From assembly GCA_041397625.1 (NCBI GenBank), contig JAWKWH010000005.1, positions 86,271-150,270 of the forward strand: 64,000 nt of DNA. The letters run 5' to 3'. The notes below the pieces were generated by a model. It was not told the origin of the DNA. It made no database searches and saw only the letters and a list, made by a program, of their open reading frames with translations. Of the stretch, positions 30,277 through 54,378 are shown in pieces. Both the position numbers and the translations under genes were made by a program. This DNA comes from Rhizobiaceae bacterium (GTDB lineage Bacteria > Pseudomonadota > Alphaproteobacteria > Rhizobiales > Rhizobiaceae). How positions within the stretch are numbered: position 1 is the stretch's first letter; every line of letters starts with the position of its first letter.

Positions 30277-30282
30277 AATCGT

Positions 30283-33996: not shown

Positions 33997-34037
33997 TGCG
34001 AGGTGGCGACCTCATCCGGTCGCGGCGGGAGATGGCG

Positions 34038-37866: not shown

Positions 37867-38726
37867 GCTGTCTGCTCCAGGGCTTGCAGGATGGCGCGTT
37901 CGGTGAGGACGCCAACCATGCGGCGCCGGTAGTCGGCGGAACTGCGTACATTGCTGATCGGCGTGCATTCCTGCATCGCCTTTGCCGCGGCGGCACCGAT
38001 CGCGTCGGGGCTCAGGTCGGACCCCTTGAGTAGTGCCTCGGCTTCCGAGGCGCGCAGCACGGTCGGGCCGACAGCGCCAAGCGCGACACGGATGTCGCTG
38101 CAACGGCCGCCGTCACGGTCAAGACTGACCGCTACGCCGACCGTTGCCAGCTCCATCGCCTTGCGCCTTCCGTGCTTTATATAGGCGCGGGCGCTGTCGG
38201 GCCTCGGAGCGGGCACCGACAGGCCGACCGCGATCTCTCCCGGCGACAGCACCGTGCGGCCGGGTCCTGTGAAAAATTCGGCCAGCGGCACCGTGCGGTT
38301 GCCGTCCGGATTGTAAATCTCGATTGCCGCTTCATCGGCGATCAGCGGTGGAATGGTGTCGGCCGACGGCGAAGCACGGCAGATATTGCCGATCACCGTG
38401 GCGCGGTTGCGCACCTGGATCGAGCCGAGTTCGCTCAGCGCCGCGGCGAAGTTCGGATAATGCCGGCGCACCTCCGCGGAAGTCTCCAACTCGCGCGCAG
38501 TGGTTAGCGCGCCGAATCTCAGCCCATCACTGTCATCGTAGGAGAAACCGTCGAGATTAGGGATCTTCTTGATATTGATGACGTGGCGGACGGTACGCAG
38601 CCGTTCGCGAATCTCGACCAGCAGATCGGTACCGCCGGCAAAGAAAAACGCCTCGTCGCCCAGTTCCTTCTTGAGGGCCGACGCCGCGGCCAGCGTCGTC
38701 GGTTCATGATATGCAAAGCGCCTCAT
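37863..38726 (-). CDS. Molybdenum hydroxylase medium (FAD-binding, CoxM-like) subunit
   Basis: FAD_binding_5 / CO-dehydrogenase flavoprotein domains (FFAGGTDLL, RNRATVIGNI). Confidence 0.88.
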   Translation of the reverse strand: MRRFAYHEPTTLAAASALKKELGDEAFFFAGGTDLLVEIRERLRTVRHVINIKKIPNLDGFSYDDSDGLRFGALTTARELETSAEVRRHYPNFAAALSELGSIQVRNRATVIGNICRASPSADTIPPLIADEAAIEIYNPDGNRTVPLAEFFTGPGRTVLSPGEIAVGLSVPAPRPDSARAYIKHGRRKAMELATVGVAVSLDRDGGRCSDIRVALGAVGPTVLRASEAEALLKGSDLSPDAIGAAAAKAMQECTPISNVRSSADYRRRMVGVLTERAILQALEQTA

Positions 38727-38766
38727 GCAAAGCCTTCCTTTCTTCCGCCCGCAAGCGGGCTCCCGC

Positions 38767-39558
38767 CTAGTCGGGGGATTGAAGACCGCGCCTTGCCTTT
38801 TGAGCGCTGCTACCGGTTCTCCGATTTCTTGACGATTTCTCTTTTCCCGCAGGACGCGCGACTTCCTCCGCCTTGCGCGCGCTTTCCTGCATCATGGTCG
38901 TTTCGAGTTCGCACAGCAGACCGGAATTCAGCCGTGCCGCCCTTTCGCCGTCGCCACGTTCCAGCGCCTCGATCGTTGCGAAATGGGTCGGCGTGCCGTG
39001 GAACTTCGACGTGCCGCCGACCCGCTCGGGCGAGAGCAACGGCTGGCAGTTCATCAGGTCTTCAAGGAAGCGGGTCAGCGGTGCGTTGCCGGCAAGCCGC
39101 GACATCGCCAGGTGGAAACTGCGCGACAGGCGATAGGCATCTTCGACGCGCCCCTTTTCATAGGCGCGATCCTCGGCTTCGACGATATCGCGCAGTTCTC
39201 CAAGCCCGGCCTCGTCGATCGTGGCGGCGAGCTTGCGCAACGCCATCTCCTCGACCGCCCGGCGCGCCTCGAACATTTGGCCGGCCTCGTCGGCATCAGG
39301 CTGGATAATCAGCGCGCCGCGGTTCTGGCTGAGTTCCACAAGCCCCATGCCGGCGAGCCGCACAAGCGCGTTGCGGATAGCCATGCGGCCGGCGCCGGTC
39401 GCTTCCGACAACTCGCGTTCGATAAGCCTGTCGCCGGCCTTCAGGCGAAACGCGTTGACCGCATCGACCACGCTATTGATCACACGCCCCTCGGCCTCAC
39501 GTCCGCTGCGACGTGTCCCGTTGGGCAGATCAAGAGCTGGAAACACGGAAGGCTTCAT
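38767..39558 (-). CDS. GntR-family regulator with FCD (FadR/VanR-type) effector domain
   Basis: wHTH (ERELSEATGAGRMAIRNALVRL) plus an all-helical FCD domain. ATG 39558 (GTG 39561 possible). 40 nt upstream of the FAD-subunit gene. Confidence 0.85.
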   Translation of the reverse strand: MKPSVFPALDLPNGTRRSGREAEGRVINSVVDAVNAFRLKAGDRLIERELSEATGAGRMAIRNALVRLAGMGLVELSQNRGALIIQPDADEAGQMFEARRAVEEMALRKLAATIDEAGLGELRDIVEAEDRAYEKGRVEDAYRLSRSFHLAMSRLAGNAPLTRFLEDLMNCQPLLSPERVGGTSKFHGTPTHFATIEALERGDGERAARLNSGLLCELETTMMQESARKAEEVARPAGKEKSSRNRRTGSSAQKARRGLQSPD

Positions 39559-39569
39559 CACGGCCTCGG

Positions 39570-39808: not shown

Positions 39809-40726
39809 CTAGTTCGCAGCGAGGTTCGGCGCGTCCCTTCCCTTCGTGGCGCCGGGCCACGCAAGCAGCTCTTTGTAGTGGGCCATTCTGTCCAGCAGAA
39901 TGGCGCGATACTCTTCCAGGTCGATGGTGCGGTCGCTGATGCGCGTCATGCCGCGCGATACCGGCACCAGAAGATCGCCGGCATGCGTGCCCTTCAATGC
40001 ATGAATGGTCGCGACTTCACCGCCCTGGGCGCCCATCCCCGGCGCCAGAATGATCGTGTTCGGCAATTGTCGACGGAGCCTCCGCGCTTCGCCCGCCGCA
40101 GTCGCGCCGACGACGGCGCCTATGGCACTGAGTCCACCTCCGCCATTGGCCGATTGTGCGATCATGTAGATCAGCTCGGCCAACCGGTCAGATACAGAGT
40201 GATTGCCCGCCATCTGGTCTTGTAGCCACGCCGCACCCGGATTGGACGTGCGGCAAAGAACCAGAATCCCCTTGCCGAACTGCCGGGCGGCATCGACGAA
40301 TGGCTCCAGCGTGTCGGGTCCCATCAGGGGGTTGACCGTCATGCAATCGACTTCGAAATCGCCACTACCGCCGGCCGACGCCGGTACCAGATAGGCGCGC
40401 GCATAGGCAGCCGACGTCGCGTCGATGTCACCGCGCTTGGCGTCGAGAATTACACCGATGCCGGCAGAGCGTGCCTGTCTTATCCCCTGGGAAAGGGCAG
40501 TCAGACCGGCCAGTCCGCAGGCTTCGAAATAGGCCGCCTGAAACTTCACGAACCCCACACGACCTTCGATCAGCGGAAGCAGAAAGTCGACAAACCGCGC
40601 GATCCACTGAGGATCGTCGCCAAATGCATGCGGCAGGTCAGGGCGATTGGGATCGATGCCGATGGTCAGCGGGCCGAATTCGCTGGCGTTTTGAGCGACC
40701 AGGTCCTGCCAGGGCATTCGGTTCAT
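39809..40726 (-). CDS. pyrF: Orotidine 5'-phosphate decarboxylase, long type 2 form
   Basis: 305 aa. DAKRGDI active-site motif and type-2 architecture. Confidence 0.85.
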   Translation of the reverse strand: MNRMPWQDLVAQNASEFGPLTIGIDPNRPDLPHAFGDDPQWIARFVDFLLPLIEGRVGFVKFQAAYFEACGLAGLTALSQGIRQARSAGIGVILDAKRGDIDATSAAYARAYLVPASAGGSGDFEVDCMTVNPLMGPDTLEPFVDAARQFGKGILVLCRTSNPGAAWLQDQMAGNHSVSDRLAELIYMIAQSANGGGGLSAIGAVVGATAAGEARRLRRQLPNTIILAPGMGAQGGEVATIHALKGTHAGDLLVPVSRGMTRISDRTIDLEEYRAILLDRMAHYKELLAWPGATKGRDAPNLAAN

Positions 40727-40746: not shown

Positions 40747-41082
40747 TCAGTTCGATCCGTCGGTTCTGTGCGTATCCGCCAGCCGGCGCGCAGCCTCGTT
40801 CATGGCGTCCAGCTTCGCCTCCGCCGAGCCGCCGGCAAAGGCATTGCCCAGAAGCGTGACCATGCCGGTTATGTGATTGAACTCTTCGGCCGCTTCCTCG
40901 ACCGTCAGCGGTTGGTCGTCATAGGATTCGACGAAACGCTGGGCCGCATAGGAAATGAGAAGCAGGGCCGCCGAATTGTCGGGTTCCTTGGCAATTCGCG
41001 CACGCGCGGCGCGCGCGCAGGCATCATAGGCGCGGACGCCGCCTCCCGCGTCACTAATGGCCTTTACCAGCGAATCAAACAT
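40747..41082 (-). CDS. Hypothetical acidic helical protein (111 aa) between pyrE and pyrF
   Basis: ORF 40747..41091, ATG at 41082. Gaps of 18-20 nt to both neighbours. No recognisable motif. Confidence 0.55.
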   Translation of the reverse strand: MFDSLVKAISDAGGGVRAYDACARAARARIAKEPDNSAALLLISYAAQRFVESYDDQPLTVEEAAEEFNHITGMVTLLGNAFAGGSAEAKLDAMNEAARRLADTHRTDGSN

Positions 41083-41100: not shown

Positions 41101-41796
41101 TCATCGTGCCAACTCGGATATTCCGCCGTGATTTGCGGACCATGCGACCGGGCCGTTCAGAAACAGCTCCACCTCGGCGATCGTGGCGGTCGGAAAACGG
41201 TTCTCGTCCTTGCAAACCTTCAAAATGTCCCACCAGGTCGCGAGGTAATGCAGCCGCATGCCGGCCGCGGCGAGCTTCTCCGGCGTGTCCGGAAAGATGT
41301 CGTAATAGAAGACGGCGAACGTGTCGGTCACGCGCGCGCCGGTGCGCGCGATCGCCTCGGCAAATTTGAGTTTGCTGCCGCCGTCGGTCGTCAGATCCTC
41401 GACCAGCAGGACGCGCGCGCCTTCCGCCAGGGCGCCCTCGATCTGCGCATCGCGGCCGAACCCCTTCGGCTTCTTGCGAACGTATTGCATGGGCAACCCG
41501 AGCCGGTCCGCCAGCCATGCGGCAAACGGAATACCCGCGGTCTCGCCGCCGGCGACGGCATCGAACTGCTCGAAACCGACATTGCGGAAGATGATCGAGG
41601 CGCCGAAGTCCATCAACGCGGAGCGGATGCGCGGATAGGAAATGAGTTTGCGGCAATCGATATAGACAGGACTTGCGAGACCGGAGGTGAATGTGAACGG
41701 CTGATCGGCCCGGAAATGGACGGCGTTTATCTCCAACAGCATTTTCGCCACCGTCTCGGAAATCACTGCGCGATCTGGAAAAGTGTTTGAAAACAT
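41101..41796 (-). CDS. pyrE: Orotate phosphoribosyltransferase
   Basis: ORF trimmed to ATG 41796 (AGGAAG upstream). Alphaproteobacterial-type PyrE ([18 protein letters not shown] motif [13 protein letters not shown]). Confidence 0.9.
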
Positions 41797-41858
41797 GGCT
41801 GCTTCCTGCTGGTTGACCGTCACCCTCTCGCTAACAACATTGCCGCGGACTAGCCAGA

Positions 41859-42899
41859 CTACTCCCCGATATTCCAGTGGATAGGAAACCCCGGGTCGAA
41901 CACCGTGACCGGCCCCTCCGCCGTCTCGATCTTCTCGGGGAACGAAATCGGCGCATCGAGCCGGGTGAGCGTGACGCGGGCTTCATTCGCCGGCAGGCGG
42001 TAGAAGGCCGGTCCGTTCAGCGAGGCGAAGGCTTCCAGTCGGTCGAGCGCGCCTTCCTCCTCAAAAACGTGGGCCAGCAACGGCATGGTGTTGATCGCCG
42101 TGAAAATGCCCGCACATCCGCAGGCACATTCCTTCAGAGGGTCAAGATGCGGAGCCGAGTCGGTGCCGAGGAAGAAGCGCGTGTCGTCCGAAGTCGCTGC
42201 CTCGCGCAGGGCGAGGCGATGGTGCTCGCGCTTGGCAACCGGCAGGCAGTAATAGTGCGGCCGGATACCGCCGACCAGGATGGCATTGCGGTTGATGATG
42301 AGATGATGCGTGGTGATGGTGGCCGCCTGGTTGTGGTCCAGCGAGCGGACATAATCGACGCCATTCTTCGTGGTCACATGTTCCATGACAACGCGCATTT
42401 CGGGCAGCCGGCGCCGCAGCGGATCGAGTACGCGTTCGATGAACACGGCCTCGCGGTCGAATATGTCGATGTCCGGATCGGTCACTTCGCCGTGCACGCA
42501 GAGCGGCATGCCGATTTCCGCCATCTTCTCCAGCACCGGCATGGCCTTCTCGATGTCGCGCACGCCGCTCTGGGAGTTTGTGGTGGCGCCGGCCGGATAG
42601 TGCTTGACGGCGGTGACCAAACCGTCGCGGAAGCCGGCCTCGACGTCGGCCGGCTCCGTGGCCTCGGTGAGATAGAGGGTCATCAGCGGCGTGAAGTCAT
42701 GGCCTGCCGGCAGCGCCTCGAGGATGCGTTTCCGGTAGGCCGCCGCATCGCTCGTCGTTGCCACAGGCGGCACCAGGTTGGGCATGACGATGGCGCGGGC
42801 GAAATCGGCCGAACTGTATGGCAGCACCGCCTTCAACATCGCTCCGTCGCGCAGATGCAGGTGCCAGTCGTCCGGTCGTCTGATCGTCAGTGTGGTCAT
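41859..42899 (-). CDS. pyrC: Dihydroorotase (E. coli-type class II)
   Basis: Near end-to-end resemblance to E. coli PyrC ([34 protein letters not shown]). Confidence 0.92.
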
Positions 42900-44179
42900 T
42901 ATCCAACCTTCAGGAATTGGTGGACGATATCCGTCGCGGCGATGAAATCGGAAAAGTCCATCGCCTCCAGGGGATTGTGCGAACCGTTCCGGTTGCGCAC
43001 GAACACCATCGCCGAGGGCACGCCCGCGGTAGCGAAGACCGCCGCGTCATGACCGCCGCCGCTGGGCATTACAAACGGTTCCTGCCCGACTTCTTTCATC
43101 GCGACTTCCAGTTGGCGGACCAGTGCGGCATCGCACAGCGCCGGCGCAGTATAGAGTTCTTCGTCAAATTTGAACTCGACCTTCCGGTCCCGCTCCACTT
43201 GCCGCATTTCGGCTTCCAGCAGCGCGCGCATTTCGTCAAGCGTTTCGGCGCTCTGGCTGCGGATATCGAGGCTGAACGAGATCTCGTCTGGAATGCGCGA
43301 CATGGCGTGCTTGTCGGGGTCTGTGCCGACGATGCCGCTGGTCAGGACCAGGTCGTCGCCCTTGTTCAGGATTGTCGACCAGCTCTCGTCCAGCCGCACG
43401 AGCAGATCGGCCATCGCCAGAACCGGGTCGCGCCGGAACGCCCGCGGCACGGCGCCCGAATGCCCTGCCTCGCCGATGCAATGAATGTCGCGATGCCGTA
43501 TGTTGCCGCGAATGCCGGAAACGATGGCCGCCGGAATGTTCTTTCCGATCAGCAGCGGCCCCTGCTCGATATGCAATTCCAGATAGGCCTCGATCTGCCC
43601 GAGGTCGATCAGCGGGCGTCCGTGGCGCACCTCGTCCATCGGGATGCCGACACCGGCCATATGCTCGCCGAGCGTGCGCCCGTCGCCCCTGTGCTTTGCC
43701 GCCAGTTCCTCGGGCGACAGGCTGCCGGTCAGCGCTTTGGAGCCCGTGTAGCAGGGTCCGAACCAGGCGCTCTCCTCGCCGCGCATTGCCAGCACATGGA
43801 AGGGCCGGACGGTCGCCGCGCCGTCTCGTTTGGCCCTGGCCAGGCAGACGAGGCCCGCCACCACACCGGCAAGTCCGTCGAAATTACCCCCGAAGGGAAC
43901 GCTGTCAACATGCGAACCGACGACTGTGAAGGTCTTCGAGTCCCGATGCTCGGGAAGTGAGAAGTTGGCGTTGCAACCGGCATCATGCCAGACATCGATG
44001 CCCTGAGAACGGGCAAATCCCTCGAGCAGCTTCAGCGTCGCCGTCTCGATCTCGGAGAACGCCGGACGACTGACGCCCTCGACATCCGCCGTCTGCGAGC
44101 CGATCCCGTCGAACAACAGCCGCGCGATGCCGAGATCGTCGATGTTGCCGTCGGCAACGATTTGCGTCAGCGCGCTCAC
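42899..44179 (-). CDS. M20-family N-carbamoyl-L-amino-acid amidohydrolase (AmaB/HyuC/AllC family); candidate N-carbamoyl-L-aspartate hydrolase
   Basis: [26 protein letters not shown] and GEAGHSG motifs. GTG start overlaps the pyrD stop (GTGA). Stop overlaps the pyrC start (TAATG). Confidence 0.85.
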
Positions 44180-45120
44180 GGTGCGGCTTCCATGAAAACG
44201 ACGCTCGGCCGCTGCTCACCGTCGACAACGGTCCCGATCAGATCGCGAACCGAGGCGATCCCCTCGCCTTCCAGATGGCGCCGGAGATCGGAGATGATGG
44301 TTACCATGGCTTTCGGGTCGACGAAGGTGGCGGTGCCTACCTGCACGGCCGACGCACCGGCGATGAGGAACTCCAGAACATCGTCGCTGCCGGAGATGCC
44401 GCCGCAGCCGATCACCGGGATGCGCGTTGCCTTCGCGCACTGGTAGGCCATACGAAGCGCTATCGGCTTGAGCGAAGGGCCGGAAAGCCCGCCCATCAGA
44501 TTGCCGAGCTTGGGACGCCTGGTCGTGATGTCGATCGCCATCGCAAGCAGGGTGTTGGCCACGACGAGGGCATCGGCGCCTCCCTCTTCCGCCGCCCTGG
44601 CCACCTCCGGCGTCTCCCCCGTATTGGGCGTAAGCTTCGCCCACAACGGCAGGTGAGTCGCATTCCTGAGCCGGCGCATCACCTCATAGGTCGAGGATGG
44701 CCGGATGGCGAACGCCTTGCCGTCCTCCTCGATGTTGGGGCACGACACATTGACCTCGATGGCCGCAACGCCGTCGACCGTAACCTCGGCGCAAAGCGCC
44801 GCGAACTCGTCGACCGTGTTGCCGGAAATACTGACCACGAGCGGCGTCCGATAGGAACGGTAGAGCGGCACCGTCTTGTCGAGAAAGCTCTTCACGCCCT
44901 TGCTCGGAATACCGATCGAGTTGAGCATGGAGCCGCCGACTTCGCACACGCGGGGCGTCGGATTGCCGCTGCGATAGTCCCGCGTGATCGTCTTGGTCAC
45001 GTGGGCACCCAGGCACTCGATGTCGAACACCTCGGCCAATTCTTCGGAAAACGTGCCGGAGGCCGGCATGATCGGATTCTCAAGGCGCAACCCGGCGATA
45101 TCGACGGACAGGTCTACCAC
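44176..45120 (-). CDS. pyrD: Dihydroorotate dehydrogenase class 1B catalytic subunit
   Basis: ORF 44176..45783 trimmed to GTG 45120 (overlaps the pyrK stop, GTGGTAG). Class-1 catalytic-Cys motif NVSCPN; IPVIGCGGI. Confidence 0.88.
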   Translation of the reverse strand: MVDLSVDIAGLRLENPIMPASGTFSEELAEVFDIECLGAHVTKTITRDYRSGNPTPRVCEVGGSMLNSIGIPSKGVKSFLDKTVPLYRSYRTPLVVSISGNTVDEFAALCAEVTVDGVAAIEVNVSCPNIEEDGKAFAIRPSSTYEVMRRLRNATHLPLWAKLTPNTGETPEVARAAEEGGADALVVANTLLAMAIDITTRRPKLGNLMGGLSGPSLKPIALRMAYQCAKATRIPVIGCGGISGSDDVLEFLIAGASAVQVGTATFVDPKAMVTIISDLRRHLEGEGIASVRDLIGTVVDGEQRPSVVFMEAAP

Positions 45121-45962
45121 GGCATCGCCTCCTGAACATCGAAGACGGGACCTTCGCGGCAGACCCGCAACTGAACGCGCTCGCCCGCCCGCATGAACGG
45201 CCGAACGCAGCAGTGACACATGCCGAGCCCGCATGCCATTTGCTGCTCGAGAGCGATCTGTCCCGGAATTCCGTGGCGCCTGCCGAGCGTCTGGAGCAAG
45301 GTGAGCATGCGGTTCGATCCGCAGGTATAGAAGGCGTCGACGCCCGGCGCGGCAACGAGGCCTTCGATCACCGTTTCCAGGTGCTGCATGCCGGAGGTGC
45401 GCTCCGAATCGGTGACGGTTACGACCTCGGCGCCCATCTCGCGGATATAGTCGATGGACATGAGCAGGTCCGGGGTCCGCGCGCTGCAGATCGCGGTGAG
45501 CCGTTTTCCGCTGTTGCGTGCTTCGAGCGCAAGAGGCGCCAAGGTAGCCAGACCCACGCCGCGCGCGACCAGAATCAGGTGCTGCCAGTCTTCCTCGATC
45601 CGAAACCCGATGCCGAGCGGACCGAGCACATTGAGCCGGTCGCCCGGAGCGAGCTGAAACAGCGCCCGCGTACCGGTCCCGGTCACCTTGTAGAGGAACT
45701 GAAGTTCGCCGCTTTCGGGAAGGAAAGAGTAGATGCTCATCGGCCGTCGCAGATACGGCTTGTCGGCACCATTGGAAGGACACAGCAAGTGGAAGAACTG
45801 CCCCGCGTGGCAGCGATCGAGGAGTTCCGCCGATGCCGCAAGCGTCAGTTGCACGTATTCGCTGTTGACCGGCTTGTTGGACAGGACGGCGAGGTCGCCC
45901 TCAAACACCGTGTGTTCGGATGCGTTCGGGCCGGCAAGCGGTGGGGATGTCATGACGCCCAT
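45114..45962 (-). CDS. pyrK: Dihydroorotate dehydrogenase class 1B electron-transfer subunit (FAD, 2Fe-2S)
   Basis: Ferredoxin-reductase-type fold with C-terminal MACGLGMCHCCV...VCREGPVF cluster motif. ATG 45962 overlaps the dctM stop (TGATG). Confidence 0.88.
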   Translation of the reverse strand: MGVMTSPPLAGPNASEHTVFEGDLAVLSNKPVNSEYVQLTLAASAELLDRCHAGQFFHLLCPSNGADKPYLRRPMSIYSFLPESGELQFLYKVTGTGTRALFQLAPGDRLNVLGPLGIGFRIEEDWQHLILVARGVGLATLAPLALEARNSGKRLTAICSARTPDLLMSIDYIREMGAEVVTVTDSERTSGMQHLETVIEGLVAAPGVDAFYTCGSNRMLTLLQTLGRRHGIPGQIALEQQMACGLGMCHCCVRPFMRAGERVQLRVCREGPVFDVQEAMPW

Positions 45963-47248
45963 CACCCAAACGCCAGGTTGGGAAGGAAGGTGGATATGGG
46001 CGGCACATAGGTAATGATTGCCAGCGCCACGAGGTTGGCCGCAACGAACGGCCAGATGCCCGAGATGATGGTCATGACCGGCTTGCCGAGGGTCGAGGCC
46101 GCCACGAAAAGGTCGAGCCCGAATGGCGGAGTGATCATTCCGACGGAGATATTGAGGGTCACGATCATGCCGAAATGAATGGGATCGATGCCCATTGCCG
46201 TCGCCACCGGATAGAGTGGCGGCACGAGGATGAGCAGGGCCGAATTCGGATCGATGAACATGCCGGCGATCAGGAAGGCGACGTTGACCACCAGCAGGAA
46301 CATCACCGGGCCGGCGTCGGCGGCCGAAAGAAATGCAAGTATGTGGTTGGGCACCTGCGCAAGCGTGATGAAGTAGGACAAGAGACCGCCGAGTGCGAGC
46401 AGCACGAAAATGATGGCCGTCGAGATGGCGGCCCGTTCAGTGATCCCGAACAACCCTCTCAAGGTAAGGGTCCTGAAAACCACGGCCTCGACGAAAATGG
46501 CATAGACCACGCTGGCGGCGGCGGCCTCGGTCGTCGTGAAGAAGCCGCTATAGATGCCCCCAAGGATGATCAGCGGCATACCCAGCGCCCAGGCCGCGTG
46601 GCGGATGGAGGCGAAACGCTCGCGCCAGCTTGTTTTCGCGCCGCCGCTGACGCCGCTGCGCCGCGCCTCCACCGCAACCAGAACGGCAAAGACGACGCCG
46701 AGAACCAGACCCACGGCAATGCCGGCCACGAACAGCCGCGCGACCGACGCGCCGGTCATCCAGCCATAGATGATCAGCGTTATCGACGGCGGAATGAGCA
46801 AAGCCGTCTCGGCGCTTGATGCGACGAGGCCGAGCGAAAACCTGTCGCGAAAGCCGGCCGAGGTCATTTCGGGGTAGACCATGCGGCCCATGGCGGCGAC
46901 GGTGGCCGGCGCCGAGCCCGAAACCGAGCCGAAAGCCATCGAGCCGCCGATGACCGTGTAGCCGATTCCGCCCCTGCGGTGGCCGACAAGGGACTGGACC
47001 AGGTCGGTCAGCCGCCGGGCAATCTGGCCGTCGCCCATCAGCTCCGCCGCAAGGATGAAGAAGGGAATCGCCAGAAGCGTGGAATGATTGATCCCGCCGA
47101 CGACTTTCTGGACGATGACCGGATCGGGCAGTGAACCGTAGAAGAACTGCTTGACCATGATGGCCGGAACGCCGAGCACGAGAAACATCTCGAACCCGCT
47201 GACCAGCAGCACTATGGCGATAGCTATGACAACCGCAAACAGGATCAT
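45962..47248 (-). CDS. dctM: TRAP transporter large permease
   Basis: ORF trimmed to ATG 47248 (ATGA overlap with dctQ). 428-aa DctM-family polytopic membrane protein. Confidence 0.9.
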   Translation of the reverse strand: MILFAVVIAIAIVLLVSGFEMFLVLGVPAIMVKQFFYGSLPDPVIVQKVVGGINHSTLLAIPFFILAAELMGDGQIARRLTDLVQSLVGHRRGGIGYTVIGGSMAFGSVSGSAPATVAAMGRMVYPEMTSAGFRDRFSLGLVASSAETALLIPPSITLIIYGWMTGASVARLFVAGIAVGLVLGVVFAVLVAVEARRSGVSGGAKTSWRERFASIRHAAWALGMPLIILGGIYSGFFTTTEAAAASVVYAIFVEAVVFRTLTLRGLFGITERAAISTAIIFVLLALGGLLSYFITLAQVPNHILAFLSAADAGPVMFLLVVNVAFLIAGMFIDPNSALLILVPPLYPVATAMGIDPIHFGMIVTLNISVGMITPPFGLDLFVAASTLGKPVMTIISGIWPFVAANLVALAIITYVPPISTFLPNLAFG

Positions 47249-47751
47249 GCCCCGCCCTCCCGGTTCTCCGAGAAACGATCGATGACGCCTGCGAAACTGA
47301 GTAGATAGCGCAGCGCAAGCAACGCAAAGCCGATGGTGGGAGCGACATAGATCCAGCCCATCGGAAAGCCGAGGGTCGGGCTGCGCTGGCCGGTGCCGAA
47401 AACGAAGACGGTCATCTCGCAGCCAATCCAAACCAGGTAGAGCGCCAGGACGAAGCCGACCGTGTCGATGATCTTGCGCAGCGGCAACCGCGTGGCCTCG
47501 GCGATGGCGTTGCGCCAGGTATCGACGGCGACATGGCGGCCGCGCTCGAGCGCCAGCCCCAGCGCCAGGAACACCAGATAGACGTTCATCAGGCGTACCG
47601 CTTCCTCGATCCATGCGAGGTCCGAGGCAAGGCTGCTACCGGAAGCGCGCACGACGACATTGATGAAGTACAGGCCGACCATGGTCAGGAAGATGAGAAC
47701 AAGCGAGAGGCGCTCGGCCGTGCGCAGTAATGAAAGCGCCTTCCGCATCAT
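47245..47751 (-). CDS. dctQ: TRAP transporter small permease
   Basis: Four-TM DctQ-family protein. Confidence 0.88.
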   Translation of the reverse strand: MMRKALSLLRTAERLSLVLIFLTMVGLYFINVVVRASGSSLASDLAWIEEAVRLMNVYLVFLALGLALERGRHVAVDTWRNAIAEATRLPLRKIIDTVGFVLALYLVWIGCEMTVFVFGTGQRSPTLGFPMGWIYVAPTIGFALLALRYLLSFAGVIDRFSENREGGA

Positions 47752-47832
47752 CCGCTCCCGTATCGCGTCTCGACAAGATCAGGTTCCCGCGCGGACATCG
47801 GCCCGAAAGCCGCGCCCGCGCGAATGCATCAC

Positions 47833-48843
47833 CTATTCGGTGATCGCTGCGTATTCCTTCTCGTAGAGCTCGATCAACTTCGCACCCTCTTCGCCCGCCC
47901 GGTCGAGATAGGCTTGGCGGGTCGCCGGATACATGGTCTTGCGGAACGCCGCCTTTTCCTCGGCCGACAGTTCACGCACATCCAGGCCCGCCGCCTTTAT
48001 CTCCTCGAGCGAGGAGGCGACGGCGGCGCGCTTGTGAGCGATCAGCTCCGGAATGACCTCGGCAAATGCGTCGGTGATGACCGTCTGGTATTCCGGCGGC
48101 AGACTATCCCAGAATGCGGGATTGAACAGGATCACGTCTTCCATCGCGCCATGGCTGGAGACGACGAGGTATTTCTGAACTTCGTAGAACTTCATCGCCC
48201 TGATGGTGTCGAGCGGGTTCTCCTGGGCATCGACGACGCCGGTCTGCAGGGACGTGTAGAGTTCGCCGAACGGCAGCGCAATGGCCGAGGCGCCGAGCGA
48301 ATTGTACTGCTCGATCAGGATGTTGGAATCCATTACCCGGAACTTCTGGCCGGCAAAGGATTCGATATCGGTAAGTGGCTTGTTGGAAGTGAAACTCTTC
48401 TTTCCGTTCGGCCACAGCATCAGGCATTTCACGCCACGCGTGGCGAAGGAATCGCACAGAGCCTTGCCGAAGGCGCCGGTGCGCAGTTCCTGCGCTTCCG
48501 CGTCGTCGTCGGGAAGCAGGAACGGGATGTCGAGAATGGAGATCGCCGGATTGAAACCGCCCAGGAAGGCTGCGGGAGCCACGGTGGCTTCCAGCGTGCC
48601 GAGCTGAACGCCCTCTGTCATCTCGCGCTGCTGGCCCAACTGGCCCTGCGGGAATATCTGAAATTCGACGGCGCCGTTGGTCCGCTCGGCAACCAGCTTG
48701 GCCACTTTTTCCAGATGCACGTGGCGCGACTGCTGGGTCGATTCGAGATGGCCAATCTTGGCGACGAAATCCGCGGCCAATGCGCCCGATGCGCCGAATG
48801 CGAGAATGGCCGACAGGGTCAGGCTGCGAAGCAATTGTCTCAC
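47833..48843 (-). CDS. dctP: TRAP transporter periplasmic solute receptor (DctP family)
   Basis: ORF to 48852. GTG 48843 preferred because AAGGGAG sits directly on the first GTG. Signal peptide ending ALA-ADF. Carboxylate-binding Arg context GQKFRVMDS. Confidence 0.88.
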   Translation of the reverse strand: MRQLLRSLTLSAILAFGASGALAADFVAKIGHLESTQQSRHVHLEKVAKLVAERTNGAVEFQIFPQGQLGQQREMTEGVQLGTLEATVAPAAFLGGFNPAISILDIPFLLPDDDAEAQELRTGAFGKALCDSFATRGVKCLMLWPNGKKSFTSNKPLTDIESFAGQKFRVMDSNILIEQYNSLGASAIALPFGELYTSLQTGVVDAQENPLDTIRAMKFYEVQKYLVVSSHGAMEDVILFNPAFWDSLPPEYQTVITDAFAEVIPELIAHKRAAVASSLEEIKAAGLDVRELSAEEKAAFRKTMYPATRQAYLDRAGEEGAKLIELYEKEYAAITE

Positions 48844-48905
48844 GGGTTCCACCTCCCTTATGTTTCAGACTGCTGCGAAGCCAAGCCTATGGAACGGCAT
48901 ACCGG

Positions 48906-48917
48906 CTGTCAACAAAT
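48906..48917. promoter_or_regulatory. Degenerate operator-like site CTGTCAACAAAT
   Basis: 9-bp core TGTCAACAA shared with O1-O4. Lies in the dctP/XRE divergent promoter. A TTGACAAT half-site also occurs at 48989-48996. Confidence 0.3.
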
Positions 48918-48919: not shown

Positions 48920-48933
48920 TCTCAAAATTGAGA
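48920..48933. promoter_or_regulatory. 6-2-6 inverted repeat TCTCAA-AA-TTGAGA in an AT-rich divergent promoter
   Basis: Perfect arms. Located between dctP and the XRE regulator gene. Candidate operator. Confidence 0.35.
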
Positions 48934-49046
48934 CGTTTATATTTTTCGTCTATTTATTGATCTGTATGTGGATTGGTGATCCGGCCATTTGACAATCGGT
49001 GAAGACGGACCCGATAACATGGCTTCCTGACACCAAGGATAGGTCG

Positions 49047-49955
49047 ATGAGCGTATCGCAGGGGGACTCCATTCGGTTCGGGGATATCGGAGCCCGTTTG
49101 CGGGCCCATCGCCTCGGCAAGGAGTTCACACCCGACGAACTGGCAAGGAAGCTGGGAATTTCCCGCGCCGCGCTCTACAGGGCCGAAAAGGGCGAGATCC
49201 GCAAGATCGAAATGCTCACCAGCATCGCCGACGAGCTCGGGGTATCCCTTGCCAATCTCATGGGCGTCGGGGTCGAGTATGTCAGCACCGCGATCGGCTT
49301 CTTTGAAAGGATGCGGCAGCTCGAGGAGCAATGCCAGCAGATCATCGGCCTGTTCAGCCCGGTATCCTATCTCCTCACATCGGACAGCTACGACGCTGTC
49401 CTAAGGGAGGTGCTGCGCGAGTCGATTCCCGACGGCGTCGAACCGGACGGTACGTCGGTCAAAGCCGTCGACGCGCTGCTGGAGATTCTGCGCGCCCGCA
49501 AGAGAACGTTCGATCTGAAGCGGCCGCTGATCGTCAGCCTTATCGCGTCAGCCGATCTCGAACGGTTCCTGCTGCACGGGCTGATCGGTCGCCACGACCT
49601 GCCCGCCGGGATCATCGACGACCGGCGGATAAAGGCGCGCAGCGAGGCCGAATACATACTCTCCATGCTGCGCAGCCAGCCGATCGGCATCCAGATCGGC
49701 ATCGTTCGCGAACCGGTGCCGGCGACCAGCTTTCAGATCTTTCGGCAGGCGGACCGGTCAGTCCTGGCGATCAGCCCGTTCCGCCTGGGCGAACAGCCCA
49801 ATATCCGGTTGGGCGTGGCGCTGATAACATCGGCGCCAGAAGCGATGGATCTGCACGAGAGCATCGCTGAACGGCTATGGGGCGAGGCGCTGAAAGGCCC
49901 CGAAGCCGCCGCCTATCTGGAGGCCATGATCGACAAATATGCAATCAGCGCCTGA
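49047..49955 (+). CDS. XRE-family HTH regulator with a ~230-aa uncharacterised C-terminal domain
   Basis: ORF 48999..49955, ATG 49047 with AAGGATAGG upstream. HTH_3 motif (FTPDELARKLGISRAALYRAEKGE). Confidence 0.8.
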   Translation: MSVSQGDSIRFGDIGARLRAHRLGKEFTPDELARKLGISRAALYRAEKGEIRKIEMLTSIADELGVSLANLMGVGVEYVSTAIGFFERMRQLEEQCQQIIGLFSPVSYLLTSDSYDAVLREVLRESIPDGVEPDGTSVKAVDALLEILRARKRTFDLKRPLIVSLIASADLERFLLHGLIGRHDLPAGIIDDRRIKARSEAEYILSMLRSQPIGIQIGIVREPVPATSFQIFRQADRSVLAISPFRLGEQPNIRLGVALITSAPEAMDLHESIAERLWGEALKGPEAAAYLEAMIDKYAISA

Positions 49956-50005: not shown

Positions 50006-50803
50006 TCAGGCGTCCGCGCCGGCGATCGTGGTGTAGGCATGCCAGGTACCGTGCCCGAGGATCGGAAAGATGACGATCAACCCCGCGAACCCTGTCAGCA
50101 GCGACAGCGCCAGACCGGCCGCCACGAGCATGCCCCAGGCGAGCATGGGCCGCAGGTTCTGGACGGTCATGGCGAAGCTTAGCCCCATCGCGGTCAGCGC
50201 ATCCGTTCTGCGCGACACCAGCATGGGAACGGAGAAGACGCTGATCGCAAAGGCAAAGGCCGCGAACAGCCCGCCCACCAGCGTACCTGTCGCGATAAGC
50301 GCCCAGCCCCGGGGCGTCGTGAACGCATTGATCAGGGCATCCGCCGCACCGGGAAACGGCGTCAGGCCAAAGAACAGCGCGTAGAGCAGATCCGCGGCCC
50401 TAAGCCAGAACAGGATGAGAAGGCCGAGCAAAAGCCCGGCATAGGCCAGTTGCGCCCCGGAAGCCGGCCGGAACGCCAGCATGTCGGCAAGCGCGACATG
50501 CTTGCCCGCCGATTGGCGGCGGCTTTTTTCATAGAGACCGATGGCCAGGAACGGCCCGACGATAAGGAAGCCCGAGACCGCCGGAAGCGCCAGATAGAGG
50601 AGTTGGCTCGCCTCAAGCGCCCACAGCACGGCGTAGGAGGCAAGGGTCAGGAACAGCCCGTAGGCGAGGCTGGACCAGGGCGCCGCCCACAGGTCGCGCC
50701 AACCGCCACGCAGCCAGCCGAACGCGGCCGATGCCGGCAGGTTGCGGGCGTGAGGCGATGCAGGGCGCTCGGGATTTCGAAGAGCGGGAAGCGGTTCCAG
50801 CAT
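50006..50803 (-). CDS. DUF2189-family integral membrane protein
   Basis: Five to six TM segments. N-terminal FGWLRGGWRDL motif typical of DUF2189. GAGGAAG RBS. Confidence 0.75.
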   Translation of the reverse strand: MLEPLPALRNPERPASPHARNLPASAAFGWLRGGWRDLWAAPWSSLAYGLFLTLASYAVLWALEASQLLYLALPAVSGFLIVGPFLAIGLYEKSRRQSAGKHVALADMLAFRPASGAQLAYAGLLLGLLILFWLRAADLLYALFFGLTPFPGAADALINAFTTPRGWALIATGTLVGGLFAAFAFAISVFSVPMLVSRRTDALTAMGLSFAMTVQNLRPMLAWGMLVAAGLALSLLTGFAGLIVIFPILGHGTWHAYTTIAGADA

Positions 50804-50815: not shown

Positions 50816-50974
50816 TCAGCAGGCCCGCCTGGCAGGCGCGGCGTGCGCAAGCGCCACACATTCGGGTTGCGAACGAAGCGCCGCCGTCAGCAAATGCGCA
50901 TTGGCAGCCATTAACAAGATGGCGGCCAAGACGGCGCCGGCGACAGCCAGTCGTCCCTGCGCGCGCGGCGTCAT
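50816..50974 (-). CDS. 52-aa single-TM protein translationally coupled to ccoP
   Basis: ATG 50974 overlaps the ccoP stop (ATGA). One hydrophobic helix (LAVAGAVLAAILLMAANAHLL) and two C-terminal Cys. Stop is 12 nt before the DUF2189 start. Confidence 0.5.
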   Translation of the reverse strand: MTPRAQGRLAVAGAVLAAILLMAANAHLLTAALRSQPECVALAHAAPARRAC

Positions 50975-51846
50975 TGCGCCGACTGCCCGCCGCTTCGGCC
51001 GAGCCCGGCGACATAGAGCGCCAAGAGGTTGATTTCGGCGTCCGACAGACGGCCGATCCATGCCGGCATCACGCCATGGCGCCCGTGGCGAAGCGTTTTC
51101 AGCACCGTGCCGGGGTCCTGGCCGTAGATCACGGAAGCGTCTGCCAGCGACGGCGCGCCAACCTCAAGTCCACCCTGTCCCTTGTCGCCATGGCAGGCAG
51201 CGCAGTTGTCTGCGAAGAGGGCCGCCGCCGGGCTACCGTCATCGGCGGTCCCTGCCGGCAGGGCTGCGACATAGCCCGCCAGCGCGGCGCGGTCGGACCG
51301 CTCCATCCAGTCGAAGGCCGGCATCTCGGCGACACGCGCATCCGGGTCTTCGGTGTTGATCCCGTGGCGGATCGTCACGGCGATTTCCTCCGGCTCGCCG
51401 CTCCACAGCCACGTGTCGTCGGCGAGCACCGGAAAGCCCGGCCCACCCTGCCCTGACAGGCCGTGGCAGGCGGCACAATTGTCCTCGAACAGGCGGCGTC
51501 CGGCCGGAAGCGCCGTGGTCAGCAAAGCCGCGTCCGCTTGCAGCGCCGCGAAATCCCCGGCTGCGAAACGACCCAGCCATCCCTGCCGCCCCGATGCCAG
51601 ATCGCGATAGCCGTCGACCGCGAGATCTCCCTGGTCCAAACCCAGCAACCCGCGCGTATAGTCGCGCCCCACCGGCCATGCGGGCAGCAGAACCCATGCG
51701 ACGACGGAATAGAGGAAGGTCAGCACCAGCGCCCAGATCACCAGTTTCGGGAAGGGCGTGTTCAACTCTTTGATGCCGTTCCAGTCATGGCCGGTGGTGT
51801 CGTGGCCGGTGACCGGATCGATCTCGCGAACGTGGGGATCGGTCAT
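50971..51846 (-). CDS. ccoP: cbb3-type cytochrome c oxidase subunit P (dihaem c)
   Basis: ORF trimmed to ATG 51846 (ATGA overlap with ccoQ). N-terminal TM plus two CAACH haem-binding motifs. Confidence 0.9.
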   Translation of the reverse strand: MTDPHVREIDPVTGHDTTGHDWNGIKELNTPFPKLVIWALVLTFLYSVVAWVLLPAWPVGRDYTRGLLGLDQGDLAVDGYRDLASGRQGWLGRFAAGDFAALQADAALLTTALPAGRRLFEDNCAACHGLSGQGGPGFPVLADDTWLWSGEPEEIAVTIRHGINTEDPDARVAEMPAFDWMERSDRAALAGYVAALPAGTADDGSPAAALFADNCAACHGDKGQGGLEVGAPSLADASVIYGQDPGTVLKTLRHGRHGVMPAWIGRLSDAEINLLALYVAGLGRSGGQSAQ

Positions 51847-52004
51847 TCCACCTCCTCCGCATCTCGAAGGATCGAGCGGGCGGCGCTCTCGTGCGCCTCC
51901 CGGCGCGAGGGGCTGTAAGCGCGGATGACGACAATGACGAAGAACCCGACAAGCCAGATCAGCCCGACTGTCTTGGAAAGATAGACCAGTATTTCGTGCG
52001 TCAT
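51843..52004 (-). CDS. ccoQ: cbb3-type cytochrome c oxidase subunit Q
   Basis: 53-aa ORF not in the track (MTHEILVYLSKTVGLIWLVGFFVIVVIRAYSPSRR...). ATGA overlaps with both ccoO and ccoP. Confidence 0.8.
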   Translation of the reverse strand: MTHEILVYLSKTVGLIWLVGFFVIVVIRAYSPSRREAHESAARSILRDAEEVE

Positions 52005-52729
52005 TGGCCACCCTCCGCCAGAGCGTCGTATGGCGCCCTGGTCAGCGTGCCAAGCGACTGAAGATAGGCCACCAGCGCATCGAATTCGGTCAACCGCGAC
52101 GGATCGCCATCGAACGCACGCATCGCCGGCCGCTCGCCATAGCGTTCGCGGAACGCGTCGGCGCCGTCGTCGTCGGGACGGCTCTGGGCCAGCGCATCGG
52201 CTTGCGCCGACGCAATCATGGCATCGTCGTAGGGCACGCCCAGCCGGGCGAGGGCAGCAAGGGAATCCGGCAACAAATCGGTACCGAGCGAGCGCGTCAT
52301 CCAGGGATAGGACGGCATGATCGAGGCCGGCACCACGCTGCGCGGATCGGTCAGGTGCCGCACATGCCAGTCGTCGGAATACTTGCCGCCGAGCCGAGCC
52401 AGATCCGGGCCGGTTCGCTTCGAGCCCCAGAGCATCGGATGGTCGTAGGCCGACTCCCCGGCAAGCGAATAAGGCCCGTAGCGGTCGATCTCATCGGCAA
52501 GGCTGCGCACCATCTGACTATGGCAGGCATAGCAGCCCTCTCGGATATAGATCTCGCGCCCGGCCAGCTCCAGCGGTGTGTGCGGGCGCAAGTCGGCGGG
52601 TATCTCGACGGTTTCGTCGATGGTGAAAAGCGGCGCGATTTCGACCACGCCTCCGATGGAGGCCGCGACGATGATGGCCGCAACCAGCCCCATCGAGAGC
52701 TTTTCCAGATTGTAGTGCAGCCTCAGCAT
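52001..52729 (-). CDS. ccoO: cbb3-type cytochrome c oxidase subunit O (monohaem c)
   Basis: ORF trimmed to ATG 52729 (4 nt after the ccoN stop). CYACHS haem motif. Confidence 0.9.
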   Translation of the reverse strand: MLRLHYNLEKLSMGLVAAIIVAASIGGVVEIAPLFTIDETVEIPADLRPHTPLELAGREIYIREGCYACHSQMVRSLADEIDRYGPYSLAGESAYDHPMLWGSKRTGPDLARLGGKYSDDWHVRHLTDPRSVVPASIMPSYPWMTRSLGTDLLPDSLAALARLGVPYDDAMIASAQADALAQSRPDDDGADAFRERYGERPAMRAFDGDPSRLTEFDALVAYLQSLGTLTRAPYDALAEGGQ

Positions 52730-52733
52730 CGCA

Positions 52734-54359
52734 TCACTCCGCCGGCTGCGCGGCAAGCGGTCGGTCCGTGGCCTCGCCTCGGGCCGAACGCATCGTCGCG
52801 CGGCAATTCCAGGCGCAGATCACCGCCCCGGTGAGAAACAGCGCCCCGCCGATGGTGCGCAGCAGGTAATAGGGCGCCATCGCTTCCACCGACTGAAGGA
52901 AGCTGTAGGAGAGTGCGCCGTTCTCGTCGTATGTGCGCCACATCAGGCCCTGTGTGATGCCGGCGTTCCACATCGCCACGACGTAGATCAGCGTGCCGGA
53001 GACGGCGAGCCAGAAGTGCCATTCGACCGCACCGGGAGACACCATCGCCTCGCGCCTCGAAAGCTGCGGCACCAGCGTATAGATCGCACCGAAGACAATC
53101 ATCGCCACCCAGCCCAACGTGCCTGAATGCACATGCCCCACCGTCCAGTCGGTGTAGTGGCTGAGCGAGTTGACCGGGCGAATGGCGAGGAACGAACCCT
53201 CGAAAGTCGACAATCCGTAGAACACTGCCGCCACGAACATGAAACGCAATGTCGCGTCGTCGCGCACCTTGTGCCAGGCACCGTTGAGCGTCGCGATGGC
53301 GTTGCCGGCCGAAGCCCAGGACGGCACCAGCAACATCACCGAAAACGTCATGCCGAGCGTTTGCGCCCAGTAGGGCAGCGCGGTGTAGTGAAGGTGGTGC
53401 GACCCGACCCAGATGTAGAAGAAGGTGATGCCCCAGAAACTGACGATGGACAGCCGATAGGACCAGATCGGCCGTCCCGAGCGCACCGGCAGGAAGTAGT
53501 AGAGCATCCCCAGAAACCCGGCGGTCAGGAAGAAGGCGACGGCGTTGTGGCCGTACCACCATTGCACCATCGCATCCTGAACGCCCGACCAGACCGGAAA
53601 GCTTTCGGCCGAGGCCCATCGCACCGGCAGCGCCAGGTTGTTGACGATGTGCAGCATCGCCACGACCAGGATGAAGGCCAGATAGTACCAGTTGGCGACA
53701 TAGATATGCGGCTCGATCCGACGCGCCAGGGTACGGAGATAAAGGACGAGATAGGTTATCCAGACCACCACGAGCCACAGGTCGGCATACCACTCGGCCT
53801 CCGCATACTCCTTGGACTGGGTCGAGCCCATCAGATAGCCACTGACGGCCCAGATGCAGAACAGGTTGTAGCCCAGAAGCACGAACCACGGACTGACGGA
53901 ATCAGCCAACCGCGCCCGTGAGGTGCGTTGCAGGACATAGAACGAGGTGGCGATCAGGGCGTTGCCGCCGAAGCCGAAGATGATACCGGTCGTATGCACG
54001 GGACGCAGCCGACCGAAGCTGGTCGCCGGCCAAAGCGGCGTCGCCTCGGGCCAGTAGAGAAGTGCGGCCACCCAGACCCCGACGCCCATGCCGATCATCG
54101 CCCAGACCAGCGTTGCCGCAATGCCGAACCGGGTCGGCGCATCATAGTAGCGGCGCCGGTGGCCGGCTGGAGGCTCGGAATCGTAGATCGATCCGCCCAG
54201 GTGAAAGGCCAGGCCGACCCCGAGCGCGAGCGCCATGAAGCCGTGAACGGCCATAACGCCATGGCGCGCGCCTGCGGCCATGGTAAGCCCCATCATGGCC
54301 ACCAGGACCGACAGCAGCAGGCCGGTCCGGCGCTCGGCAACGGTAAGCGTGGCGGTCAT
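52734..54359 (-). CDS. ccoN: cbb3-type cytochrome c oxidase subunit N (catalytic)
   Basis: 541-aa haem-copper oxidase C-family subunit (WWYGHNAV, GSHHLHYT, WTVGHVHSG). Confidence 0.92.
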   Translation of the reverse strand: MTATLTVAERRTGLLLSVLVAMMGLTMAAGARHGVMAVHGFMALALGVGLAFHLGGSIYDSEPPAGHRRRYYDAPTRFGIAATLVWAMIGMGVGVWVAALLYWPEATPLWPATSFGRLRPVHTTGIIFGFGGNALIATSFYVLQRTSRARLADSVSPWFVLLGYNLFCIWAVSGYLMGSTQSKEYAEAEWYADLWLVVVWITYLVLYLRTLARRIEPHIYVANWYYLAFILVVAMLHIVNNLALPVRWASAESFPVWSGVQDAMVQWWYGHNAVAFFLTAGFLGMLYYFLPVRSGRPIWSYRLSIVSFWGITFFYIWVGSHHLHYTALPYWAQTLGMTFSVMLLVPSWASAGNAIATLNGAWHKVRDDATLRFMFVAAVFYGLSTFEGSFLAIRPVNSLSHYTDWTVGHVHSGTLGWVAMIVFGAIYTLVPQLSRREAMVSPGAVEWHFWLAVSGTLIYVVAMWNAGITQGLMWRTYDENGALSYSFLQSVEAMAPYYLLRTIGGALFLTGAVICAWNCRATMRSARGEATDRPLAAQPAE

Positions 54360-54378
54360 CTTCCCCTGCCCCTGTGCA

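Follow-up and report, generated by a model that had tools for sequence, protein, structure and literature searches.

Does an operon that joins a substrate importer and an amidohydrolase to a set of pyr genes make pyrimidines, or does it consume one of their precursors? This question is raised by a locus in a 64,000-nucleotide stretch of DNA from a Rhizobiaceae bacterium (GenBank assembly GCA_041397625.1, contig JAWKWH010000005.1, positions 86,271 to 150,270), the whole of which we refer to as the window. On its minus strand the locus carries the three genes of a tripartite ATP-independent periplasmic (TRAP) transporter, followed by genes for a dihydroorotate dehydrogenase (DHOD)-type reductase, an M20-family amidohydrolase and a dihydroorotase. 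We conclude that it is probably an orotate-utilisation operon, which would import orotate and break it down reductively to L-aspartate, while PyrE and PyrF would provide a salvage branch. The features of the locus, in the order in which the unit is read from its regulatory region, are as follows.

48999..49955, plus strand: divergent XRE-family helix-turn-helix (HTH) regulator, 318 aa (HTH_31 and HTH_3 at residues 30-85 only)
48920..48933, no strand assigned: palindrome TCTCAATTTTGAGA, 14 bp, putative operator in the 146-bp intergenic region
48884..48912, minus strand: promoter-like site read from the sequence, TTGACA (48912-48907), 17-nt spacer, TAGGCT (48889-48884), of presumed function
47833..48852, minus strand: dctP, TRAP solute-binding protein, predicted orotate binder (PF03480; 64% identical to 4NN3)
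47245..47751, minus strand: dctQ, TRAP small membrane subunit (PF04290)
45962..47248, minus strand: dctM, TRAP large membrane subunit (PF06808; TIGR00786 378 bits, cut-off 268)
45114..45965, minus strand: pyrK-like FAD/2Fe-2S electron-transfer subunit of a divergent clade (PF10418; aligns with 1EP3_B)
44176..45120, minus strand: pyrD, class 1B catalytic subunit, proposed NADH:orotate reductase (NF005574 354 bits, cut-off 269)
42899..44179, minus strand: M20 enzyme of the N-carbamoyl-L-amino-acid amidohydrolase type, proposed ureidosuccinase (TIGR01879 257 bits, cut-off 204)
41859..42899, minus strand: pyrC, type II (E. coli-type) dihydroorotase (TIGR00856 436 bits, cut-off 293)
41101..41823, minus strand: pyrE, orotate phosphoribosyltransferase (OPRTase; NF001729 389 bits, cut-off 245)
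40747..41082, minus strand: conserved protein of 111 aa, probable partner of the M20 enzyme (no Pfam match; in 55 of 70 clusters)
39809..40726, minus strand: pyrF, type-2 orotidine 5'-monophosphate decarboxylase (TIGR02127 208 bits, cut-off 111)

The binding protein is an orthologue of an orotate-bound TRAP protein

The transporter is of the DctPQM type, with its three subunit genes side by side and with scores for TIGR00786 and TIGR00787 that are both above the cut-offs. DctP is 64% identical to the protein of PDB entry 4NN3 across the whole mature protein (E 4.8e-135), while the second-best PDB match reaches 1e-49. The 4NN3 protein is a TRAP binding protein of Maridesulfovibrio salexigens (DSM 2638) that was crystallised with orotic acid (PMC11668362), and orotate is listed among the new TRAP ligands that came from the Enzyme Function Initiative (EFI) screen (PMC5812351). 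R172 (in FRVMDS) and N212 (in ENPLD, the ENPL motif) are invariant in the alignment of DctP with 4NN3; going by that alignment and by PMC11668362 they would be the arginine of the carboxylate salt bridge and the asparagine of the ligand site. As judged by sequence, DctP is the orthologue of the sole structurally defined orotate-bound TRAP binding protein.

A predicted class 1B-type reductase follows the transporter

The initial annotation had assigned pyrK and pyrD to a class 1B DHOD on the basis of a catalytic cysteine and a four-cysteine 2Fe-2S motif, and both motifs hold up in alignment with the Lactococcus lactis enzyme, DHOD B. NVSCPN in PyrD corresponds to NISCPN in L. lactis DHOD B (5UE9), and the C-x4-C-x2-C...C of PyrK lines up with L. 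lactis PyrK (1EP3_B), against which the FAD motif RRPMSI (RxxS) is conserved as well. PyrD matches the L. lactis chains 5UE9 and 1EP1 with E values of about 1e-71, and its MLNxIG, NxSCPN and NTL motifs are conserved in the same alignment; we take these to be the motifs that bear the substrate-contacting residues in the L. lactis enzyme. The best NCBIfam equivalog score of PyrK is 125 bits against cut-offs of 219-314, and an exact-sequence look-up returned no identical entry. By its scores PyrK is a member of a divergent clade and is filed here as PyrK-like. The catalytic motifs are intact in PyrD, PyrK, the M20 enzyme and PyrC.

The orotate/dihydroorotate couple lies at about -0.26 V, above the -0.32 V of NAD+/NADH, and the reduction of orotate by NADH is therefore favourable. 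A ubiquinone-linked class-2 DHOD is not known to reduce orotate.

The M20 amidase and its probable small partner

The best PDB match of the M20 protein is the L-N-carbamoylase 3N5F (E 3.6e-51). The active-site motifs SH.DSV, FDG, EE, ELHIEQG, HDx and LD[IL]R all align with those of 3N5F, and the protein also matches the N-carbamoyl-beta-alanine amidohydrolase 8C46. Its gene context makes it a candidate for ureidosuccinase (EC 3.5.1.7), an activity to which, to our knowledge, no gene and no sequence-defined family have been assigned.

The 111-aa protein has the locus tag R3D45_15375; it most likely begins with the ATG at 41082 and gave no match in a Pfam search. A profile built from 61 cluster copies of this protein found just 131 matches among 1.84 billion representative proteins. 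It recognises the corresponding small proteins of plasmid-borne clusters in Klebsiella (E 2.5e-14) and Pseudomonas putida (E 2e-13), which are described below, and it matches residues 445-547 of the M20 protein of an Agrobacterium tumefaciens plasmid (E 1e-25). WP_137006314.1 is such a natural fusion in A. tumefaciens. Three of the 131 matches (P0348, P0412 and P0441) are proteins of 538-556 aa in which the small domain is C-terminal. The N-termini of P0348 and P0412, the two that were compared, are 60% and 55% identical to the window M20 enzyme, and P0441 has the length and domain position of these two fusions. The recurrent fusion of the small protein to M20 enzymes argues that it works with the amidase, and we regard it on these sequence relationships as probably a partner of that enzyme. 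An AlphaFold2 (AF2) model of the small protein has five helices and a mean predicted local distance difference test score (pLDDT) of 89.7; a fold search of the PDB with this model gave nothing better than E 1.1.

The operon extends beyond pyrC

The initial annotation had described an operon of seven genes, dctP-dctQ-dctM-pyrK-pyrD-M20-pyrC, chained by overlaps of start and stop codons. All seven open reading frames (ORFs) are indeed open on the minus strand with the coordinates given above, and the junction strings are exact: ATGA at dctQ/dctM (47245-47248, an overlap of 4 nt), TGATG at dctM/pyrK (45960-45964), GTGGTAG at pyrK/pyrD (45114-45120, 7 nt), GTGA at pyrD/M20 (44176-44179) and TAATG at M20/pyrC (42897-42901, 1 nt). 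No overlap had been claimed for dctP and dctQ, which are separated by 81 bp. What required revision is the end of the unit, which continues past pyrC into pyrE, the 111-aa ORF and pyrF. The gap from pyrC to pyrE is 35 bp, or 62 bp with a PyrE of 231 aa (a database protein that is 100% identical, P0121, has this length and would place the start at 41796), and it is followed by gaps of 9 bp between pyrE and the 111-aa ORF and of 20 bp between that ORF and pyrF. The end of pyrF at 39809 is the downstream limit, the next gap being 247 bp. In full, the unit comprises the divergent XRE-type regulator and the operator palindrome, dctPQM-pyrK-pyrD-M20-pyrC, pyrE, the 111-aa ORF and pyrF. A scan for promoters and terminators placed no terminator inside the operon, but its sites were at or below the number expected from shuffled sequence, so that the scan is uninformative. 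No Rfam family matched anywhere in the window.

The cluster recurs as a discrete cassette

An alignment scan with DctP, restricted to one genome per species, yielded 80 loci with 65-90% identity from Rhizobiales, Rhodobacterales, Granulosicoccus and Desulfobulbales. In 70 of these at least 9 kb of sequence is available downstream of dctP, and 65 of the 70 have pyrK, pyrD and an M20 gene there. Recurrence in so many species-representative genomes places the arrangement far beyond chance. The remaining content varies: the regulator is present in 64 of the 70 loci, the small protein in 55, pyrE in 50, pyrC in 34 and pyrF in 5. Even the closest relative has different flanking genes, which marks the cluster as a discrete cassette. 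Culturable carriers of the cluster include Roseibium aggregatum and Nitratireductor indicus. A metagenome-assembled genome of the Desulfocapsaceae, a lineage of anaerobes, has the same functions in another gene order, HTH-dctPQM-M20-pyrC-pyrE-pyrK-pyrD, and there the pyrK and pyrD genes form a canonical class 1B pair.

In five loci (L048, L059, L073, L081 and L084; 65-75% identity) the transporter stands alone, with neither the regulator nor the TCTCA-N4-TGAGA palindrome described below. A tblastn search of about 9 kb downstream found no pyr-like gene in any of the five, and Pfam scans of the neighbouring ORFs in three of them likewise found none. These TRAP-only loci may be salvage-only importers.

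A conserved palindrome lies beside the predicted promoter

The palindrome TCTCAATTTTGAGA is unique in the window, where 0.01 matches would be expected by chance. It lies 7 nt upstream of the TTGACA box, and a TTGAC box at such a spacing is conserved across loci; TCTCA-N4-TGAGA followed 6-9 nt on by TTGAC is found upstream of dctP in 71 of the 80 loci. The A. tumefaciens plasmid has the same palindrome before pyrK and a related one before the gene of its major facilitator superfamily (MFS) transporter. We found the palindrome by eye and by comparison across loci, its 5+5 structure having escaped a search for inverted repeats with a seed of 6 nt; a consensus promoter scanner did not list the TTGACA-17-TAGGCT site.

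The C-terminal ~220 aa of the regulator contain no known domain, and sequence matches in the PDB are confined to the HTH. A single-sequence AF2 model of the regulator has a pLDDT of 38 and is not usable. The closest relatives of the window (L006, L007, L009, L010, L029 and L034) carry a second HTH regulator paralogue, 44-45% identical, about 1 kb upstream of the cluster regulator and beyond it; this paralogue is absent from the window.

Plasmid-borne clusters, some with another transporter

PyrK homologues occur on 78 plasmids. Plasmids of Nitratireductor carry the TRAP version together with pyrE and the small gene, and three other hosts carry versions with an MFS transporter, in which the regulator is 41-57% identical. 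On the Klebsiella pneumoniae IncFIB milk plasmid pBckp091-1 (NZ_CP050823.1) the MFS gene is accompanied by pyrK-pyrD-M20-pyrC-HTH-small and the cluster adjoins lacY/lacZ. The conjugative P. putida plasmid p716811-VIM has the HTH gene, the MFS gene, pyrK-pyrD-M20, a long dihydroorotase and the small gene, while the A. tumefaciens pAt plasmid has the MFS and HTH genes, pyrF, pyrK, pyrD and the fusion of M20 with the small protein. The hosts of the MFS versions, Klebsiella, P. putida and A. tumefaciens, are prototrophic for pyrimidines and have class-2 pyrD, pyrC, pyrE and pyrF on their chromosomes. The presence of the core on plasmids of such hosts indicates that the conserved core is accessory, an addition to biosynthesis and not a replacement for it.

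Including pBckp091-1, 53 large Klebsiella plasmids carry the cluster with PyrK proteins that are 99.6-100% identical, and a search of 5,426 complete E. coli genomes returned no match to the Klebsiella cluster. About 10 of the 53 plasmids come from milk or bovine mastitis and the remainder are of human or wastewater origin. Bovine milk is rich in orotic acid, and the cluster beside the lac genes may be a niche trait. On p716811-VIM, genes for a malic-enzyme-like protein and a methyl-accepting chemotaxis protein (a chemoreceptor) lie directly after the cluster (13802-16842 of that locus). The malic-enzyme-like gene fits a C4 flux from aspartate, and the chemoreceptor perhaps serves chemotaxis to the substrate.

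Origin of pyrC and pyrE

PyrC is a type II dihydroorotase that matches 4LFY and 1J79 with E values of about 1e-126, and its metal- and substrate-binding motifs HLHLRD, VKHYPAG, VHGE, EHVTT and GTDSAPH align with those of 4LFY. The window PyrE is 80-84% identical to products of pyrE genes that are not linked to a TRAP cluster in Mesorhizobium koreense, Aquibium oceanicum and Jiella marina, and the window PyrC shares 77% identity with its Aquibium counterpart, which is part of a plain pyrC-pyrE pair. This identity to copies with no adjoining TRAP cluster places PyrC and PyrE in the native housekeeping lineage. In A. oceanicum the pair (locus 4197-10696) is immediately preceded, on the same strand, by a Bmp-family ATP-binding cassette (ABC) transporter. 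Nucleosides are the substrates of Bmp-family systems, and this adjacency may be another link of uptake genes with pyrimidine genes.

The closed chromosome of M. koreense (CP134228.1) has two pyrE genes, at about 2.22 Mb and 1.47 Mb, whose proteins are 99% identical. One lies within a complete orotate cluster and the other stands alone 0.75 Mb away. Both lie in a shared segment of 806 bp, 98% identical at the DNA level, which takes in the final 55 bp of pyrC, so the stand-alone gene looks like a recent copy of the pyrC-pyrE junction of the cluster, unless the two copies have been homogenised. The second pyrE outside the cluster demonstrates that the cluster pyrE can be an additional copy.

Proposed pathway and alternative explanations

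In the pathway that we propose, the DctPQM system would import orotate, and PyrK/PyrD would reduce it with NADH to L-dihydroorotate. A dihydroorotase would then open the ring to give N-carbamoyl-L-aspartate, this enzyme being the cluster PyrC or, where the cluster has no pyrC, a housekeeping copy. The M20 amidohydrolase, probably together with the 111-aa helical protein, would convert N-carbamoyl-L-aspartate irreversibly to L-aspartate, NH3 and CO2. Given that the operon contains pyrE, the small protein and pyrF as well, orotate is probably both salvaged and catabolised: PyrE and PyrF would turn part of the imported orotate into UMP. This branch might keep up the pyrimidine supply while M20 drains carbamoyl-aspartate, an intermediate of de novo synthesis. 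The XRE-type regulator is predicted to control the unit through the TCTCA-N4-TGAGA palindrome beside the -35 box. The TRAP-coupled reductive route from orotate to aspartate was already put forward in the initial annotation, and it is strengthened by the orthology with 4NN3, the synteny in 65 of 70 loci and the plasmid modules; the salvage branch and the variability of pyrC are additions to it.

Several points weigh against this proposal. Its support throughout consists of homology and gene context, from which we predict the ligand and the inducer, the direction of flux, the substrate of M20 and what PyrE, PyrF and the small protein do. The M20 enzyme scores under the cut-off of every NCBIfam equivalog model, and its sequence leaves the substrate undefined. 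The cluster contains pyrC in only 34 of the 70 genomes. Since PyrC and PyrE belong by sequence to the housekeeping lineage, they could be the only copies in the genome, in which case they would also be biosynthetic and their loss would lead to auxotrophy. Finally, the orotate in 4NN3 came from a finite screening library, and the physiological ligand could be a close analogue.

This last point leads to an alternative in which the enzymes act as proposed but on a relative of orotate (L-dihydroorotate, N-carbamoyl-L-aspartate, 5-carboxymethylhydantoin or a substituted orotate), orotate being merely the nearest compound in the library. Besides the origin of the 4NN3 ligand, it would accommodate an M20 enzyme that fits no equivalog model and a PyrK that is divergent and below the cut-offs. 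However, there would be no need of a reductase unless the imported compound, like orotate, were oxidised at C5-C6, and the PyrD motifs taken to carry the substrate contacts (MLNxIG, NxSCPN and NTL) are conserved. In addition, pyrE is co-located in 50 of the 70 clusters, and the substrate of OPRTase is orotate itself. We therefore consider a substrate other than orotate unlikely. It could also be argued that the orotate system is limited to HTH-dctPQM-pyrKD-M20 and that the genes from pyrC to pyrF, the small ORF included, are housekeeping genes that adjoin it by chance, given that PyrC and PyrE are of native lineage, that the plain pyrC-pyrE pair of Aquibium has no TRAP cluster beside it, and that half of the clusters have no pyrC and most no pyrF. 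Chance adjacency is difficult to reconcile with the overlap of the M20 stop with the pyrC start and with downstream gaps of 9-35 bp in which no terminator was detected. Moreover, pyrE and the small gene accompany the cluster in Rhizobiales, Rhodobacterales and Desulfobulbales with varied flanks, and on the Nitratireductor plasmids; M. koreense has its second pyrE outside the cluster, and several lineages have the small protein as a fusion with M20. We give this narrower view of the system little credence.

The least probable of the alternatives, and one that we regard as very unlikely, is that the locus is anabolic and provides a second route to UMP, independent of quinone and oxygen, in which an imported precursor feeds an NAD-linked DHOD, PyrC, PyrE and PyrF and the M20 enzyme has an unrelated or an editing role. 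The complete gene set from dihydroorotate to UMP is present, and the adjoining operon for a cbb3-type oxidase suggests a micro-oxic lifestyle. The conserved core, however, consists of transporter, PyrKD and M20 and not of PyrE and PyrF, and the plasmid versions of Klebsiella and P. putida have neither pyrE nor pyrF. A decarbamoylase would destroy an intermediate of the very pathway it belonged to. The binding protein, for its part, matches an orotate binder, and the conversion of orotate to UMP needs no DHOD. Weighing these points together, we continue to favour an orotate-utilisation operon.

Neighbouring genes

Beside the orotate operon lies a separate cluster of catabolic appearance (26576-39561) that comprises the following genes.

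26576-29363, plus strand: SsuA/NMT1-type ABC transporter
29689-30276: UbiX
30283-31776: UbiD decarboxylase
31730-32674 and 32715-33797: two Amidohydro_2 proteins
34038-35084: CobW
35084-38726: three-subunit molybdenum hydroxylase of the xanthine dehydrogenase (XDH) family
38767-39561: GntR/FCD regulator

This UbiD/XDH-type cluster looks like one for the degradation of an N-heterocyclic or aromatic carboxylate. We considered it as a part of the orotate pathway and rejected it, as its genes accompany the orotate cluster in no other fetched locus. On the other side, just upstream of the regulator, is the operon for a cbb3-type cytochrome oxidase (50971-54795, minus strand), with a further membrane protein gene next to it.

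52734-54359, minus strand: ccoN
from 52001, minus strand: ccoO
50971-52011, minus strand: ccoP
50006-50803: gene for a BPSS1780-like membrane protein

Implications and comparison with known systems

We put forward, as a proposal whose chances we judge to be evenly balanced, that the M20 clade with its 111-aa partner is the orphan ureidosuccinase and that the cassette, in its TRAP and MFS forms, is an orotate-catabolic island that moves horizontally and has so far not been described. Its proposed range covers marine Alphaproteobacteria, Desulfobulbales, Burkholderiales, plasmids of Pseudomonas and Agrobacterium, and Klebsiella plasmids beside the lac operon. A full-text literature search that did not take in the primary EFI report (Vetting et al. 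2015) found no description of an orotate catabolic gene cluster and no use of the term "ureidosuccinase".

If correct, this would give a pathway of the 1950s, for which we found no gene-level description, its genes along with a transporter, regulator and operator, and would supply a sequence for the orphan EC 3.5.1.7. It would also explain why a second, NAD-linked DHOD is kept beside a quinone-linked one, as only the NAD-linked enzyme can run backwards. The 111-aa protein would be a new family, with no Pfam or PDB fold match, that is tied to the M20 amidase by fusion. A mobile island devoted to orotate, in marine bacteria and on Klebsiella milk and mastitis plasmids, would mean that this compound is a worthwhile nutrient there. 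Annotation pipelines label these genes as pyrimidine biosynthesis, which would mislead metabolic models.

The binding protein shares 64% identity with 4NN3 of M. salexigens, and the latter has been characterised as a binder only. With the class 1B PyrDB/PyrK of L. lactis (1EP1-1EP3) the locus shares the heteromer implied by the pyrK/pyrD overlap, the catalytic cysteine, the FAD motif and the 2Fe-2S cysteines; the window PyrK differs in scoring below curated cut-offs, and the direction proposed here is opposite to that of biosynthesis. The M20 enzyme belongs to the same subfamily (TIGR01879) as the L-N-carbamoylases and ErtE, the N-carbamyl-L-glutamate amidohydrolase of ergothioneine catabolism, and has the aligned 3N5F motifs. 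It reaches, however, only 241 bits against an ErtE cut-off of 520, is also below all allantoate amidohydrolase cut-offs, and is accompanied by or fused to a five-helix protein that was not seen with those enzymes.

At the level of the pathway, the proposed route parallels reductive pyrimidine catabolism (PydA/PreAT, dihydropyrimidinase and beta-ureidopropionase) in the reduction of C5-C6, the hydrolytic opening of the ring and the decarbamoylation by an amidase of the M20 or nitrilase type. It would differ in that its substrate bears a 6-carboxylate, its ring-opening enzyme is a dihydroorotase and its product is aspartate rather than beta-alanine; the reductase is moreover of the DHOD type and not of the PreA type (NF006183 140 bits, cut-off 335). 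In its predicted chemistry the route corresponds to that of Clostridium oroticum, whose degradation of orotate was reportedly worked out by Lieberman and Kornberg in the 1950s and proceeds through orotate reductase (NADH; EC 1.3.1.14), dihydroorotase (EC 3.5.2.3) and ureidosuccinase (EC 3.5.1.7). The same three steps are predicted here, with matching enzyme families and with an NAD-linked flavoprotein plus an iron-sulfur subunit as the reductase. In contrast to that fermenting Firmicute, the window host is a respiring alphaproteobacterium and does not fit an anaerobic fermenter with orotate as its energy substrate: a cbb3 oxidase is encoded beside it, and its relatives are aerobic marine Alphaproteobacteria. 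The window locus further adds a TRAP importer, a regulator with its putative operator, a predicted salvage branch (pyrE and pyrF) and a new small protein. The locus resembles the C. oroticum pathway in its working but is a different system.

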